A stretch of 63,625 nt of DNA, counting the filler. It is 11 parts of 11 records of this genome, joined end to end, with 100 filler letters (N's around TTAATTAATTAA, not from the genome) between each part and the next. Parts side by side here need not be neighbours in the genome. Positions count along the whole stretch, not along the records: positions 23,616 to 29,378 come from SRR31156797_191895; 10 more parts are not named here. One strand, 5' to 3'. Under the pieces are notes generated by a model. That model saw nothing but the letters and a program-made list of their open reading frames with translations. It did no database searches and was not told the DNA's origin. The translations under genes and the position numbers were made by a program. Of this stretch, positions 23,616 through 29,378 are shown in pieces. Within the stretch, counting starts at the first letter, position 1. Each line of letters starts with the position of its first letter.

Positions 23616-23708
23616 GTGACCGGGTATCCCGACGGCAACTTCCGGCCCGGCTCCTGCGTCTCACGCGCTGAAATGACGGCTCTCATGTGCCGAATTGATC
23701 CCGTATAA
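23616..23708 (+). CDS. C-terminal fragment of an SLH-domain protein
   Basis: VTGYPDGNFRPGSCVSRAEMTALM, the SLH consensus. Confidence 0.75.
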   Translation: MTGYPDGNFRPGSCVSRAEMTALMCRIDPV

Positions 23709-23747
23709 TTAAACTATGTCATTCCGCTAGCGGCTTATTGAAGTTTG

Positions 23748-23794
23748 AATCTGTCCTCAGGTGCTGCCTAAAACACCTGAGGACAGATTTTTTT
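23748..23794 (+). terminator. Intrinsic terminator
   Basis: AATCTGTCCTCAGGTG-N10-CACCTGAGGACAGATT followed by T-run. Confidence 0.85.
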
Positions 23795-23927
23795 ACGCCA
23801 CCATTTTATCCGTACCGCCACCATTTTCACACCATTATTTTCCTTTTTTGTGTTTCCCGCCATTTTCCGACTGTTTTCTCACCTTCAACTTATTACACTA
23901 AAATTACTATTTCTTAGGGGTGATATC

Positions 23928-25589
23928 TTGAAGGCGACAAAAAAATTCATTATGATGGGCGTCTGCTTTGCCATCTTACTGTCCGTATTATCAATGCTGA
24001 CACAGCAGAAAGCGGAAGCGGCTGAATATAGATTCAATATGTCTTACATATATTTCGGCAATTCCACGAACTATACAAAGCTCGTGGACAGCACGCAGAA
24101 TTCGCTTGGCGAGGTATCCCCGAATTATTTTGGCCTCGACAAAAACGGTGATCTCGCGCTGACCGCTTCCGTCAGCATGGATTTTATTAACGATATGCAC
24201 GAGCGCGGCGTTACCGTCGTGCCGTATCTGACGAACGACTGGTCGCGTGCCGTCGGCAAGGCCGCTCTTAATAACCGGGACAATCTCGCCCGGGACGTTG
24301 CCGATGCCGTCGTACTTTACGAGCTGGACGGTGTCAATATCGACATTGAAAACGTTACTTCATCGGAGCGAGAGGCTTATGTTGAATTTACGCGCCTTTT
24401 AAGAAATCTCCTTCCGGATGGAAAAACAATCGCCGTTTCCGTTGCAGCCAATCCCTGGGGCCTCGATACGGGCTGGCAGGGCTCATACGATTACGCCGGT
24501 TTGGCTGAATACTGCGATTATCTGATGGTCATGACCTATGATGAGCATTACTACGGCGGACCGGCCGGCCCCATATCGAGCTACGATTATATCGACAAGT
24601 CCCTCAAATACGCTGTCAGCGTCGTACCGAAGGACAAAATCGTTCTTGGTCTCCCCTTTTACGGACGTATCTGGAGCGCAGACGGCAGCCATCCAAACGG
24701 ATACGGCGTGAGCAATACGATGATTGCTCAGCTTATAAACGATTACGGCGGTGTTGTCACAATCGACCCGGTCAGCCGCTCGACGCGCGCCGTCATTACC
24801 ATAGGCGAATCGGAGATTAAACCGGTCGTCGGCGGACAGGCTCTTGCGGCCGGGACGTATACCATCTGGTACGAGGGGGAAACATCCGTCAAGTCCAAGC
24901 TTGAGCTTGTGAATAAATATGATATCAAGGGTACAGGCAGCTGGAGCCTCGGACAGGAATCCGATAACACCTGGAATTACTACAAGCTCTGGCTCAATGA
25001 CTGTACATTCAACGATATTGAGAACAGCTGGGCCAAGGACTATATTCTCGAAGCCTATCTCAAAAACTGGGTTACCGGTTACAGCGCCGACAACTTTTCA
25101 CCCGACGAGCCGCTCACCCGGGCGCAGGCCGCCGTCATATTGGTCCGCCGCCTCGGACTGTCGCCCCAGCTGGAGCCGGCCTACCGGTTTGACGACTGCG
25201 TCGGCTACTGGGCGCAGGCATATCTGGAGACCGCCAGAAAATATAACATCATTCAGGGCATCGGCGACAACATGTTTAATCCCAACAAGCCCATTACGCG
25301 TGAGGAGATTGCCGTTATGGTTAATAATGTCCTCAAATATCAAAACACCTATGGAGACAGCCTGTATTCGGACGTAACACGCACCAGTAATCCCTGGTCT
25401 TACGACTCCATTGAGGCGCTGAGCGCCAACGGGATCATTAACGGTTTCCAGGACGGGACATACCAGCCCGGTAATACGCTCACACGTGCGGAGATGACGG
25501 TACTAGCCGCCACGATGCCGTCTATTGACAGCAGCACGCTCGATGTTGCGCCAGTCGTAAGCCCGAGCTCCTCCTACTATTTATATTGA
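23928..25589 (+). CDS. GH18 glycoside hydrolase with three C-terminal SLH domains
   Basis: Probable TTG start at 23928 after AGGGGTGA; signal peptide; DGVNIDIE, MTYDEH, LGLPFYG, WSLGQE; SLH repeats with TRAQAA, TREEIA, TRAEMT. Confidence 0.88.
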   Translation: MKATKKFIMMGVCFAILLSVLSMLTQQKAEAAEYRFNMSYIYFGNSTNYTKLVDSTQNSLGEVSPNYFGLDKNGDLALTASVSMDFINDMHERGVTVVPYLTNDWSRAVGKAALNNRDNLARDVADAVVLYELDGVNIDIENVTSSEREAYVEFTRLLRNLLPDGKTIAVSVAANPWGLDTGWQGSYDYAGLAEYCDYLMVMTYDEHYYGGPAGPISSYDYIDKSLKYAVSVVPKDKIVLGLPFYGRIWSADGSHPNGYGVSNTMIAQLINDYGGVVTIDPVSRSTRAVITIGESEIKPVVGGQALAAGTYTIWYEGETSVKSKLELVNKYDIKGTGSWSLGQESDNTWNYYKLWLNDCTFNDIENSWAKDYILEAYLKNWVTGYSADNFSPDEPLTRAQAAVILVRRLGLSPQLEPAYRFDDCVGYWAQAYLETARKYNIIQGIGDNMFNPNKPITREEIAVMVNNVLKYQNTYGDSLYSDVTRTSNPWSYDSIEALSANGIINGFQDGTYQPGNTLTRAEMTVLAATMPSIDSSTLDVAPVVSPSSSYYLY

Positions 25590-25687
25590 CTTTGCATCTG
25601 TGTTAATTAACCCCAAAACACGTGTTGATAATTTTATCCAGTTGCGGTATGATTTGTATAATATATCAGCGCAGCGGGGTGAGGATT

Positions 25688-26005
25688 ATGGAGCCAGCCG
25701 ATTGCCGGCATCAGCATATCGTCCAATTCAGATCGTTTATATTTGAAACCCCTTTGCGGGCTCAGGTTTGCGATCATTGCGGAAGTAATATTCGACTATG
25801 CTGGTTTTGGTGGCTACTGGGTGCGCTCATGAAGCTTCCGGGTCCGGTCTCGCTAATGGTGATTTTTTATTTCCGGCCGGGCTTTGTGATTGGAGGCCTG
25901 ATTTTCATTGCGGCCTGGGGCGGTGAGTACGTCCTGTTGTGGCTATTAGCCCAAAAAGGCCGTTATGTACTAAAGAAATCGCGTAAAAGCACCGTTAATT
26001 ATTAA
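25688..26005 (+). CDS. Small membrane protein with a putative Cys/His metal site
   Basis: ATG after GAGGA; CRH...CDHC followed by two hydrophobic segments. Confidence 0.5.
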   Translation: MEPADCRHQHIVQFRSFIFETPLRAQVCDHCGSNIRLCWFWWLLGALMKLPGPVSLMVIFYFRPGFVIGGLIFIAAWGGEYVLLWLLAQKGRYVLKKSRKSTVNY

Positions 26006-26023
26006 ACAGCCGCGCTGCTGCAG

Positions 26024-26233
26024 CTACCTCATAAGCAGGCGTGAGACAAAATAAAAAAGCACATCAGCGGATGAATCATCACTCCACTTCCGTGCCTTTT
26101 CACGTTTATACGCTTTTGGATTTTCCGGCTTTCTCGTAACCGGCTTAATGCTGCCCCAGGTCCGGCGCTGTTTTGCCATAAGCTCTCGCTTTTTGCGCTT
26201 GGACAGCTTCTCAAACGGTATGAATTTGTCCAT
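26024..26233 (-). CDS. Small basic protein, candidate alternative ribosome rescue factor (ArfA/BrfA-like architecture)
   Basis: 69 aa; K/R-rich first ~49 aa and hydrophobic tail VLFYFV; strong promoter and RBS; terminator inside the ORF. The confidence is for the gene being real; the function is inferred. Confidence 0.7.
   Translation of the reverse strand: MDKFIPFEKLSKRKKRELMAKQRRTWGSIKPVTRKPENPKAYKREKARKWSDDSSADVLFYFVSRLLMR
26048..26096 (-). terminator. Intrinsic terminator located within the 69-aa ORF
   Basis: mRNA GGCACG-GA-AGUGGA-G-UGA-(UGAU)-UCA-UCCGCU-GA-UGUGCU, whose last U begins a UUUUUUAUUUU tract ending about 20 nt before the UAG. Confidence 0.7.
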
Positions 26234-26240
26234 AATACAA

Positions 26241-26291
26241 TCCTTTCAATGTTACTGTCAACAATCTAACAGACGCCACGGCATTTGTCAA
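26241..26291 (-). promoter_or_regulatory. SigA promoter and RBS of the 69-aa gene
   Basis: TTGACA (26291-26286), 17 bp, TAGATT (26268-26263) with extended TG; RBS AAAGGA (26246-26241). Confidence 0.8.
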
Positions 26292-26341
26292 TCCGGCGCT
26301 TCGCGTCTTCCTTTACGACCTGTAATTTGTTCGCCTGCAGA

Positions 26342-26367
26342 TGGAACATAATAGACTTAACATCGTC
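26342..26367 (+). promoter_or_regulatory. Candidate ECF-sigma promoter
   Basis: TGGAAC-N16-CGTC upstream of the AAAGGAGG RBS of 26405. Confidence 0.55.
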
Positions 26368-26404
26368 TCATCCGTAACGACGAACGTCGATAAAGGAGGT
26401 TTAT

Positions 26405-27412
26405 ATGAAGAAAATTGTTGTATCCTGCCTGATGGCCCTGACACTGGCGCTCTCCGTCTTTACCGGCGCTTTGGCGGCCGGCAATGCGGAAAGCTACGAC
26501 GACATCACGGGCACATGGTATTATGAAGCGGCCGATGCTTATGCCTACCCGGAAGTATTTGGCGACAGCGGCCAGCTGAAGGCTGACCAGGACATTACGC
26601 GGATTGAATATGTCCGCCTGCTGCATAAGGCACTGGGCATCTCAATCAACTACTTTGCTGCAAACGATATCACCGACAGCTTTGACGATATGAAAAACGA
26701 CGACATTGGCGCAAACGAGCTCATCGACCTTGTAACCGTCGGAATCGTCGACGCGGGCGGCAGCTTTTCGCCCGACGCGGCGCTTGACCGCGAGGTCTTG
26801 ATTCACTGGACTATTGCCGCGCTGGATTACATGACCGGCGGAGACTACGCTATGATCATGATCATGCCGGCCCCGTTTGACGACGATGCGGATATCACAC
26901 CCGCGTATTCGGACGACATTGTTAAATCGGTCGTGCTCAATCTCATTAACGGCCGCGGCGACAATATGCTCTTCCCGAAGGACGGCGCGACGCGCGCGGA
27001 GGCTTTGACGGTTGTATACCGGCTGGCTTCCCTGCTTGAAACGCTTCAAAGCGACGTCACGGTTGACGCAACGGCAACGGTGACCGGCGACAAGCTCCTC
27101 ATGTCCCTCACGGTCCGCAACAACACGGATAAGGCTGTGACGATTAACTATACGAGCGGCCAGCAGTTTGATTTCAAGCTTTTTGACGCGGACGGCGAGT
27201 CGCTTTATACCTGGAGCGCCGACAAATCGTTTATGCAGGCGCTGAACGATATCGTCATTGAGCCGGGCGAGCAGCTCAATTACACGGAAATCCTTGACGG
27301 CGATGCTTTCGCAGCGATCAAGGACAGCGCATCGCTATTCAAAGCGTTCATCACCGGTACATCCGACGACTTTGAGATCAACACGGACGGCTATGAGGCT
27401 GTTATTAAATAA
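26405..27412 (+). CDS. Secreted SLH-domain protein with a C-terminal BsuPI-like (proteinase inhibitor) domain
   Basis: Signal peptide; SLH-like ITRIEY and ATRAEA; C-terminal VTINYTSGQQFDF...YTWSADKSFMQAL. Confidence 0.8.
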   Translation: MKKIVVSCLMALTLALSVFTGALAAGNAESYDDITGTWYYEAADAYAYPEVFGDSGQLKADQDITRIEYVRLLHKALGISINYFAANDITDSFDDMKNDDIGANELIDLVTVGIVDAGGSFSPDAALDREVLIHWTIAALDYMTGGDYAMIMIMPAPFDDDADITPAYSDDIVKSVVLNLINGRGDNMLFPKDGATRAEALTVVYRLASLLETLQSDVTVDATATVTGDKLLMSLTVRNNTDKAVTINYTSGQQFDFKLFDADGESLYTWSADKSFMQALNDIVIEPGEQLNYTEILDGDAFAAIKDSASLFKAFITGTSDDFEINTDGYEAVIK

Positions 27413-27434
27413 GCCTATCATTAACAAATGATAA

Positions 27435-27480
27435 AACCGGGATTATTCTCATTATTTTTGAGAATAATCCCGGTTGTTTT
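27435..27480. terminator. Probable bidirectional terminator between convergent genes
   Basis: Perfect 17-bp stem AACCGGGATTATTCTCA / TGAGAATAATCCCGGTT, A-rich before and T-rich after. Confidence 0.8.
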
Positions 27481-27617
27481 CATTATTTCCGATTTTTCGC
27501 CGGCTATATATTTCGTTAGCCGTTGTTTGTCCATTAAGAATATACCACAATTTCTCACAATCACAGACCGTTTTCTCATATTTGTCGAGAACCACGGCAT
27601 AATTTGCCACTTCATTC

Positions 27618-27959
27618 TCAGTGAAAGCCGCGGGACCCCAGGATATCCGAGACAATCCGCACAAAATTTTCTTCAGCGCCCCAGGAAAACCTGAAAAAGA
27701 CGCCCTGCCCGCCGCCCGCCCCGACGGCATCGACCAGGACTTCGGTACCTTTGCCGATGACGCAGATGGAGAGACTGGCACGGTTGGATGAGCGCATATA
27801 GTATTTTTCAAAAACAAGAAGGTCGTAGGTTATACCGTCAAAATTGCGGCTGATACGGTCAATGAGCTGGCAGCTCACTGCGCTGTTTTGGATCTCATTG
27901 ATGAGTATGGCGACAATCTCATGGGCACTGCCTGTGCCGGTCATGGATAAGCTGGCCAT
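27618..27959 (-). CDS. Conserved hypothetical protein (DUF6054-like)
   Basis: VFEKYYMRSSNRASL...GAGGGQGVFFRFSWGAEENFV; AAAGGA RBS. Confidence 0.75.
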   Translation of the reverse strand: MASLSMTGTGSAHEIVAILINEIQNSAVSCQLIDRISRNFDGITYDLLVFEKYYMRSSNRASLSICVIGKGTEVLVDAVGAGGGQGVFFRFSWGAEENFVRIVSDILGSRGFH

Positions 27960-27977
27960 TGAACCCGTCCTTTCTTA

Positions 27978-28832
27978 TTAACCCTGTCCCCTTTTGAACC
28001 GGCTTTCAATTGACCGATTGCCGTTCAATGGATCAATTCCCATGTCTTCAAGGATTGCGACCTCGTCGAGCGTACCGCTGCCCTGCGGGACGCCCCAAGC
28101 GCCGCAGTCGCTGCCGGAGGCGATCAATACGCCGCGCCCATACGCCTCCATGAGGACATTTTTCTGTGTTTCATGAATATGCCGCATAACCGTATCCGAA
28201 TACCGGCCGCTCCCGATTAGGTTATAGGCCGTGGCGCACGTCGGTACCCAGACGGCCCCCGTTTGCAGAAAATAATCAATGACGGAGCTGTCCGGCCAAT
28301 AGCCGTGCTCAATGCTCTTCACACCGTCCTCAAGCGCACTTTTAATATGGTCTGCGCCATTGACGTGGGCCATCACGGCAAACCCCTCGCCCTCGGCGAT
28401 CCGGACCGTTTCCCGAAGCTCCTCAGTGCCAAACACCGGACCCATGATCTCGCCGGTACCGTCAAAGTCCAGCATACCCGTTACGGTGATTTTAATAAAG
28501 TCTGCGCCGAGAGACGCGGCCTCACTGACCAGCGCGCGGTATTCGGCCATATTCTCAAAGCTCCTGCCGTACATGGCGCCGTAATAGCCTTTTTTATGGG
28601 TAATGAACACTGGGGTACGGTAATCGATGCCATATTCCCCGGCAATCTTTTTGGCGTAAGCCGATACCATATATTTATCGCCGCCGTCTCGGTAAAAGCC
28701 GATGCCGCACCCGGCGACCGTTCTTAAAGTCTCCTGAACGTAAGCCTTGTCAATGCCGTTTTTATGCCGGTTCATGGCGTCGGCATAGCTGACGCCGTCG
28801 GCGATAATGTGTCCGTGACACTCATAGATCAT
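27978..28832 (-). CDS. Amidohydrolase-family metal-dependent hydrolase
   Basis: ECHGH, GADFIKI, AVMAHVNG, SIEHG, SGSD motifs. Confidence 0.85.
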   Translation of the reverse strand: MIYECHGHIIADGVSYADAMNRHKNGIDKAYVQETLRTVAGCGIGFYRDGGDKYMVSAYAKKIAGEYGIDYRTPVFITHKKGYYGAMYGRSFENMAEYRALVSEAASLGADFIKITVTGMLDFDGTGEIMGPVFGTEELRETVRIAEGEGFAVMAHVNGADHIKSALEDGVKSIEHGYWPDSSVIDYFLQTGAVWVPTCATAYNLIGSGRYSDTVMRHIHETQKNVLMEAYGRGVLIASGSDCGAWGVPQGSGTLDEVAILEDMGIDPLNGNRSIESRFKRGQG

Positions 28833-29378
28833 AATGACAGTAACCCCTTGTCAACCAGCCACTCGACGCTGTGCCGGCTTTCCCGGACTTCGAGCGTCAT
28901 CGTCATGTCTGCCGGCCCCGCCAGCATAATACCCATCAGCGCCTCGACATCCATCTCGCCGTCGTCGAGCGCGTTGTGCGTATCGGGCCAGCCGTTGTTG
29001 TTGTGCAGATGGACATGCCCCAGATACGGCAGCACGGCCTTTGTCCAGTCCATCATCGTCAGACCTTTTTTTGTGATGTTGGCATGCCCGATATCAAGGC
29101 ACAGCCGAAAGCGCGGGTCGTCTACGCCCCGCACGATGTTGACAAGCATTTCGGGCGCGTCCTCCAGAACGTTTTCCAATACAATCGTGAAATCCTCCGG
29201 CAGGTCCTTCAAGTATTCGCGCCAGAACGCGACAGAGCGCTCTGTAAAGTATTCCGGGAAATAAACAAAAGGTATATAACCCGAATGGACAACCATCCGT
29301 TTGATTCCGTAACGCCGCGCCAGGCCAAAGGCCTGCGCGTACCGCTTTTTCGTGACGTCCAGCACAAGCGGGTCAATC
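28829..29378 (-). CDS. Sugar phosphate isomerase/epimerase (AP endonuclease 2 TIM barrel), 5'-truncated
   Basis: VVHSG, LENV, CLDIGH, HVHLHNN...DTH, TLE. Confidence 0.85.

Follow-up and report, generated by a model that had tools for sequence, protein, structure and literature searches.

To our knowledge, deliberately stop-less mRNAs that yield protein only upon failure of trans-translation are confined to the ArfA and BrfA families, and we know of no BrfA in Oscillospirales. As described in PMC6881298, brfA has 71 sense codons and a rho-independent terminator in its coding region, with a product of about 62 residues that is tagged and degraded unless SmpB is absent; BrfA recruits RF2 and is, by the same account, restricted to part of the Bacillaceae; compatibility across species is given there as low. 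In arfA, a stem-loop leads to termination or to RNase III cleavage, and a hydrophobic tail destabilizes the full-length protein, according to the review PMC8012679, which also expects more small RF-recruiting factors beyond the reach of homology searches. A Lys-His motif conserved in ArfA and BrfA is described as contacting 16S rRNA (PMC6881298). The window considered here, i.e., the whole stretch of 63,625 nucleotides that was analyzed, carries a small gene with a conserved hairpin and U tract inside its reading frame, and its comparison with these systems is the subject of this report.

A stand-alone gene of 69 codons

The initial annotation had described this gene as monocistronic, with a near-consensus promoter and a ribosome-binding site, and the sequence bears this out (Table 1). 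The peptide quoted there was reproduced on translation, the promoter reads TTGACA-17-TAGATT (score 10/12 at a spacer of 17 nt, plus the extended -10 element) and GAAAGGA precedes the start codon. These signals recur among related loci: 56 of 79 have a promoter scoring at least 10/12 no more than 110 nt from the ATG, against none of 76 control regions, the end of the -10 hexamer is mostly 23 to 33 nt from the ATG, and AAAGGAG-like ribosome-binding sites, of the strong type and at the right spacing, are common, occurring in most loci. In a further promoter-like site (TTGACA-18-TATTAT, 26261-26232 on the minus strand, 11/12), the -10 hexamer runs into the start codon. Because of this overlap the site is unable to serve the 69-codon ORF, and it could be a chance occurrence or else an internal or leaderless start.

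Table 1. Features of the small gene and its neighbors, in positions of the window
Feature	Position	Strand	Basis or remark
Nominal ORF, 69 codons including TAG stop	26024..26233	-	ORF reading and translation; SRR31156797_191895 part (23,616-29,378)
-35 hexamer TTGACA	26286..26291	-	Gene's own promoter; sequence and promoter scan
Extended -10 TGnTAGATT	26263..26270 (hexamer 26268-26263)	-	Sequence and promoter scan
Shine-Dalgarno GAAAGGA	26241..26247	-	7 nt ahead of ATG
Conserved protein core, codons 1-49, basic	26087..26233	-	Alignments A1 and A3
In-ORF hairpin, ORF nt 135-179, encoding residues ~46-59	26055..26099 (G-C core 26096-26058)	-	Fold, covariation
U6AU4 tract	26048..26058	-	Sequence
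Tail codons and stop, unconserved, predicted missing from most transcripts	26024..26047	-	Tails unalignable
Divergent upstream gene, SLH + BsuPI (proteinase-inhibitor) protein	26405..27412	+	Pfam
Convergent downstream ORF	25622..26005	+	Cys/His-rich N-terminal part, hydrophobic C-terminal half
GH18 chitinase-like protein, three SLH repeats	23850-25589	+	Pfam; convergent to the small gene

The upstream gene is divergent and the downstream ORF convergent; therefore, the 69-codon gene stands alone. The convergent ORF, for which neither Pfam nor NCBIfam holds a family, is conserved in only one of the 80 related loci compared (L001, 73% amino acid identity). It stops about 40 nt short of the hairpin, which may also act as its terminator. 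Synteny of the GH18-SLH and SLH-BsuPI genes with the small gene is limited to the Sporobacter/Papillibacter group, and the comparison of gene neighborhoods across related loci revealed no neighbor or operon conserved throughout the family. The two largest neighbor clusters were rejected, as they consist of the small gene itself and of its antisense ORFs.

A widespread family with a conserved core and free tails

A word-seeded search retrieved 271 proteins of 37 to 121 aa, all labeled hypothetical, with names that suggest Clostridiales/Oscillospiraceae. The exhaustive profile search extended this to 2147 representative clusters (E<=1e-3), 1126 of which pass E<=1e-10. In most of the 150 clusters listed, the match starts at residue 1 to 9 (proteins of 64 to 127 aa); in the others it starts as far in as residue 49. 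When one genome per species was scanned, 216 of 275 candidate stretches were confirmed as relatives, of which the best 80 were kept; together with the window, they make up the comparative set of 81. All of the 80 loci whose titles name a family or genus belong to Oscillospirales (Sporobacter, Papillibacter, Acutalibacteraceae, Caproiciproducens, Ruminococcaceae, and others), and the closest relative among those found, L001 from an uncultured Sporobacter, is 87% identical. Among the relatives of one carrier genome, G001, the gene is present in 33 of 121 and as a single copy in 32 of these 33; G014 gives two matches. Duplicates occur elsewhere as well: L071 holds two copies on the same strand about 830 nt apart (238-435 and 1065-1340), and three further assemblies have two copies on separate loci (L009/L022, L015/L024, and L025/L033).

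The initial annotation had predicted a conserved N terminus and a variable tail, and 37 aligned members follow this pattern. High conservation spans residues 1 to about 50-58, with M1, K9, K12, W26, P31-V-T-R34, Y42, K46, and W50 invariant, and past residue 58 or so the tails, 0 to about 50 residues long, become unalignable. Of 60 columns, 9 are invariant and 13 nearly so, and the family consensus reads MEKFIPYEKLSKKKQRELxAxRRGxWGxxNPVTRKPENPKAYNRxKARKWSDDSxxxVPF. The residues from KARKW to VPF are largely set by the two stem arms of the hairpin, and, rather than being basic, the predicted product ends in an acidic or neutral stretch (WSDDSSxxVPF). As noted earlier for this locus, translation of the window gene yields neither GGQ nor KGKGS, the ArfA motif; the consensus also lacks GGQ. 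An AF2 model (mean pLDDT 72) consists of a short N-terminal turn, a helix at residues 12-24, an extended middle, and a second helix at residues 44-53.

Database comparisons place this protein in no described family. Pfam, NCBIfam, a PDB sequence search, and the ESM Atlas gave no informative family match; at E<=1, Pfam (scanned with the 81 members) and NCBIfam gave nothing beyond noise, and a Foldseek search of the AF2 model against the PDB returned a single, meaningless match (E=6.6). A mobile-element reading was rejected on the scarcity of matches in such elements: plasmid records did not match the core, and among 50,697 phage records only two did, at 45-50% identity (MT839421.1, 4092-4238, and MT836245.1, 9726-9854). 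Both are short, unannotated human-faecal virome contigs, which may represent bacterial carry-over or a phage-borne copy.

From the start to the first stop codon, the ORFs of the window and the 80 loci range from 59 to 478 codons. We regard the longer proteins as accidental read-through rather than fusions because any Pfam domain is found in only 2 of the 120 listed, and the two domains (MutS_V and a methyltransferase) differ. These apparent fusions, P0327 (627 aa) and P0330 (L055, 530-1591), run into downstream MutS_V-domain and methyltransferase genes; the MutS_V case may reflect adjacency to a mutS-like gene on one 3.6-kb contig.

The hairpin within the reading frame

A hairpin followed by U6AU4 had been claimed to lie inside the ORF, about 20 nt before the stop codon. 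The distance from the end of the tract to the TAG (26026-26024) is 22 nt, and the 111-nt fold has a free energy of -36.3 kcal/mol (z = -3.4), equalled by none of 200 shuffles. The G-C core of the hairpin, GGCACG...UGUGCU, contains a single internal loop and a single bulge, which is why the automatic terminator scan omitted it; both the fold and the comparative data establish that it is real. RNAalifold, run on alignment A2 (ORF nt 127-200 of the window and the 80 loci), finds the same hairpin with compensatory changes at 12 of 12 pairs across the 81 sequences. Counting pairs directly, 95.6% of cells are paired and 65 have changed on both sides, values that no shuffle out of 500 matched on any of five measures, and sliding the partners by 1 to 3 columns lowers the pairing to 31-58%.

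Conservation of the in-ORF terminator among homologs, on which the initial annotation made its reading depend, is extensive. Of the 81 sequences, 79 keep the hairpin at one position of the ORF, with 8 or more of the 10 outer stem pairs, the exceptions being L060, with 7 of 10 outer pairs and a fold in shifted register, and L052, which has no hairpin. At least six T's occur in the 9 nt past the last G-C-type pair in 69/81 and at least five in 76/81, and at least six T's are found in 2.4% of 2661 control windows from the same loci; five Papillibacter-like loci have TTTT or less past the stem. An in-frame stop at or ahead of the last G-C pair of the stem, which would have spoken against the earlier reading, is found in none of the 81 loci.

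Downstream of the stem, stop codons are scattered and the frame is lost. Measured to its first base, the stop is more than 12 nt past the stem (up to 1265 nt) in 65 of the 81 loci, 10 to 12 nt past it in 2, and 1 to 9 nt past it in 14. These near stops are mostly at +5, in forms of 59-60 codons, and they fall inside the U tract; therefore, some terminated transcripts there may retain a stop. Gaps in the 45 nt past the stem break the frame (lengths that are not multiples of three) in 47 of 60 close pairs, defined by at least 85% identity over nt 1-132; this count is qualified by non-independence among the pairs and by rough alignment of the diverged tails. The window and L001 offer a direct case, in which a difference of a single T in the U tract (T6 versus T5) puts the two tails in different frames.

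Ten weaker relatives from other genomes (L127 to L136) extend this picture in two directions. L131, L134, and L135 carry hairpins of unrelated sequence, each with a T tract behind it, at the corresponding point of the ORF, just past the basic core. In all three the stop comes after the T tract; L134 has it no more than about 10 nt from the stem, whereas in L131 and L135 it is more distant. The arrangement has thus persisted, or arisen anew, with different sequences, which speaks for selection acting on the design as such. Six of the ten (L127-L130, L133, and L136) belong to a divergent subfamily or are similar to it (for example, ...KQSKKAQKKYHAKQRGSWYGISPVTRTVPNGKAYDRN...); all six end at an ordinary stop and lack a hairpin in the ORF. 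Five of them have 55 to 59 codons and L133 has 78, and L130 carries a strong terminator past its stop. The script did not find the family motif in L132. The protein of this stop-type subfamily is about as long as the predicted nonstop product, and its existence, together with L052, implies that nonstop gating is not universal in the family.

These data bear on a simpler explanation, namely, that the gene is an ordinary one for a small basic protein, with a terminator that reaches into the 3' end of the ORF to save space or to be shared bidirectionally, the functional protein arising from transcripts that retain a stop and tmRNA playing no regulatory part. Such an arrangement would account for the 14 loci with a stop inside the U tract, the weak T tracts at some loci, and the subfamily that stops normally after 55-59 codons. 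The 5' flank of the hairpin is rich in A, and in some groups (Papillibacter-like and Caproiciproducens-like) the convergent gene ends right at the hairpin, so that the element is able to terminate in the other direction too. However, a bidirectional role leaves its effect on the small gene's own transcript in place, and many loci have the hairpin but share no convergent neighbor. Ordinary genes have their stop ahead of the terminator as a rule, whereas 65 of the 81 stops lie beyond 12 nt past the stem, close relatives lose frame there, and distant clades place unrelated hairpins at the same ORF position. We therefore consider the ordinary-gene explanation unlikely.

Far less probable still, to the point of being hardly credible, is that the ORF goes untranslated and that a small RNA or leader is what has been conserved. 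Conserved structure in a short gene would suit such an element. Yet the ribosome-binding sites are strong and correctly spaced in most loci, the frame is open in 81/81, the invariant and nearly invariant columns of A3 attest to high amino acid conservation, and gaps are few ahead of the hairpin-encoded residues (A3 has 64 columns for proteins of at most 60 residues). The Rfam search gave no family above noise, the best being RT-3 with 14.8 bits against a cut-off of 40.5 bits.

Taken at the level of sequence and comparison, then, this is a conserved gene with an in-frame terminator and with a tail that is not under selection. A nonstop-mRNA architecture is very probable because the element is conserved and covaries, stop codons scatter past it, the tails drift out of frame, and the arrangement has recurred independently. 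In the window, we infer transcript 3' ends at about 26051-26049, which would give a stop-less mRNA and a product of about 60-61 residues. The RNA runs surveyed included none with the locus; contigs of three entries from one study share 0.27-0.33 of the sampled words. The initial claim of a nonstop mRNA, and hence of a tmRNA-gated protein, is strongly supported at the level of sequence; as a statement on the whole family it has to be narrowed in view of the 14 loci with stops in the U tract and of the ungated subfamily.

Putative function and relation to known rescue factors

The rescue genes of five carrier genomes indicate in which setting the small protein would act. Each of the five has one tmRNA above the Infernal cut-off, SmpB, an NFACT_N/RqcH gene, and exactly two RF-1-domain genes, read in G001 as RF1 and RF2; the RF-1-domain search found ArfB in none of them, and 120 of the 121 G001 relatives have two or fewer RF-1-domain matches. 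The tmRNA locus of G001 (L083) scores 158 bits with RF00023 by Infernal; ARAGORN reports no tmRNA there. Two RF-1-domain genes per carrier agree with the absence of ArfB from Firmicutes as stated in PMC6514570. A survey table in PMC11633108 covers 2633 Firmicutes genomes and has two entries of 5, which presumably stand for ArfB and ArfA/BrfA. Carriers with tmRNA and SmpB and without ArfB have what a nonstop-gated backup circuit needs.

A tmRNA-gated, release-factor-dependent backup rescue factor is the likeliest function, to which we assign a probability of roughly 55%; the assignment is by analogy because no similarity to ArfA or to PDB, Pfam, or NCBIfam entries was found. Weighing against it are also the acidic or neutral C-terminal end, the missing K-H motif, the limited occurrence of the gene (33 of the 121 G001 relatives), and the second copies in a few genomes. 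The circuit, for which we infer termination in vivo, tmRNA tagging, ribosome binding, and RF recruitment, might run as follows. A strong constitutive promoter would drive transcription of the gene for a basic protein of about 58-60 residues, and the transcript would end at the intrinsic terminator within its own frame, leaving an mRNA without a stop codon at whose 3' end translating ribosomes would stall. As long as tmRNA-SmpB works, the product would be tagged and degraded; once trans-translation is saturated or lost, untagged protein would build up. By analogy with ArfA and BrfA, its basic segments would then bind ribosomes with an empty mRNA channel, and recruitment of a class I release factor would bring about peptidyl-tRNA hydrolysis.

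The same evidence for a nonstop architecture also applies to a tmRNA-gated protein with a role other than release-factor recruitment, which we regard as a possible, clearly less favored alternative. Such a protein could report the failure of trans-translation to ribosome splitting or RqcH-MutS2 feeding, act in hibernation, or regulate RNA or DNA via its basic helices. The lack of detected homology to any Arf family, the acidic C-terminal end, the missing K-H motif, and the presence of RqcH in the carriers are all compatible with this, and the stop-type subfamily implies that the protein can be useful without gating. Conversely, the sole known genes with programmed in-ORF termination or cleavage, arfA and brfA, encode RF2 recruiters as far as PMC6881298 and PMC8012679 describe them. 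Size, charge, the lack of a catalytic motif, and the stand-alone position also suit the Arf class, and no conserved partner gene indicates another pathway. A stronger version of the alternative is more doubtful still: the family might be the first non-Arf-type user of a programmed nonstop mRNA as a sensor of trans-translation capacity, acting by a different route, which may be subunit splitting or hand-over to RqcH-MutS2, hibernation, or regulatory nucleic acid binding. If this sensor reading were true, nonstop gating would be a general regulatory principle and not a peculiarity of rescue factors.

We found no prior description of a clostridial or Oscillospirales factor of this kind in the literature. 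Members abound in Oscillospirales, a major group among the Clostridia of the gut and of anaerobic digesters; in the carriers of this order, ArfB was not found. If the backup rescue reading is true, the family would fill a gap in the clostridial ribosome-rescue repertoire, and a simple search rule for further factors of this type, i.e., a conserved in-frame terminator followed by an unconserved tail, would be validated. Direct testing is possible in cultured carriers, which include Caproicibacter fermentans EA1, Ligaoa zhengdingensis NSJ-31, and Oscillospiraceae LBM23126.

Among the known systems, BrfA (YqkK) of Bacillus subtilis comes closest. In either case, an ORF of about 70 codons contains a rho-independent terminator (PMC6881298); here, the element is in frame and covarying, and the stops downstream of it are scattered. 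As far as BrfA is described, both products have about 60 residues (predicted in our case), are basic, lack GGQ, and have short N-terminal helices, and both are encoded by stand-alone genes in Bacillota hosts with tmRNA-SmpB and RqcH. The hosts differ, being Oscillospirales here and Bacillaceae for BrfA, and the conserved KH of ArfA and BrfA is absent from the family consensus. At E<=10 against all PDB chains, profiles A1 and A3 gave, between them, 0 matches and one irrelevant match (BRG1, E=1.3), a comparison to be read with the proviso that the presence of the chain of 6SZS, the BrfA structure (PMC6881298), in the searched PDB copy is uncertain.

ArfA, from Escherichia coli and other beta/gamma-proteobacteria, is likewise encoded by a short gene (72 codons, against 69 here) in which a stem-loop inside the ORF leads to a nonstop mRNA, and its C-terminal tail, too, is unconserved or hydrophobic and outside the active protein. 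There, RNase III cleavage adds to termination, whereas the element described here resembles a canonical intrinsic terminator. Homology was not found: hhalign of A3 against E. coli ArfA gave a probability of 0.5%, no ArfA family appeared in the Pfam scan of 81 members at E<=1, and, as a positive control, an ArfA query retrieved six ArfA chain sets from the same PDB copy. The distinctness from ArfA and BrfA put forward by the initial annotation is thereby supported.

ArfT of Francisella tularensis presumably falls in a Pfam family shared with stress-repeat proteins, and members of the small-protein family gave no match to such a family in Pfam at E<=1. As described in PMC8012679 and PMC6514570, ArfT is also small, charged, devoid of GGQ, and thought to be RF dependent, but it has about 40 aa and those accounts do not present it as nonstop encoded. 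ArfB (YaeJ) shares the role of a backup for nonstop ribosomes and a basic segment thought to probe the empty mRNA channel; unlike the small protein, it has its own GGQ domain, and the RF-1 domain PF00472 has no match in the family (Pfam, 81 members). Judged by sequence, the family thus falls outside ArfA, BrfA, and ArfB; it appears unrelated to ArfA and BrfA while sharing their genetic design, and, if the proposed function is true, it would represent a third independent invention of the ArfA/BrfA circuit.
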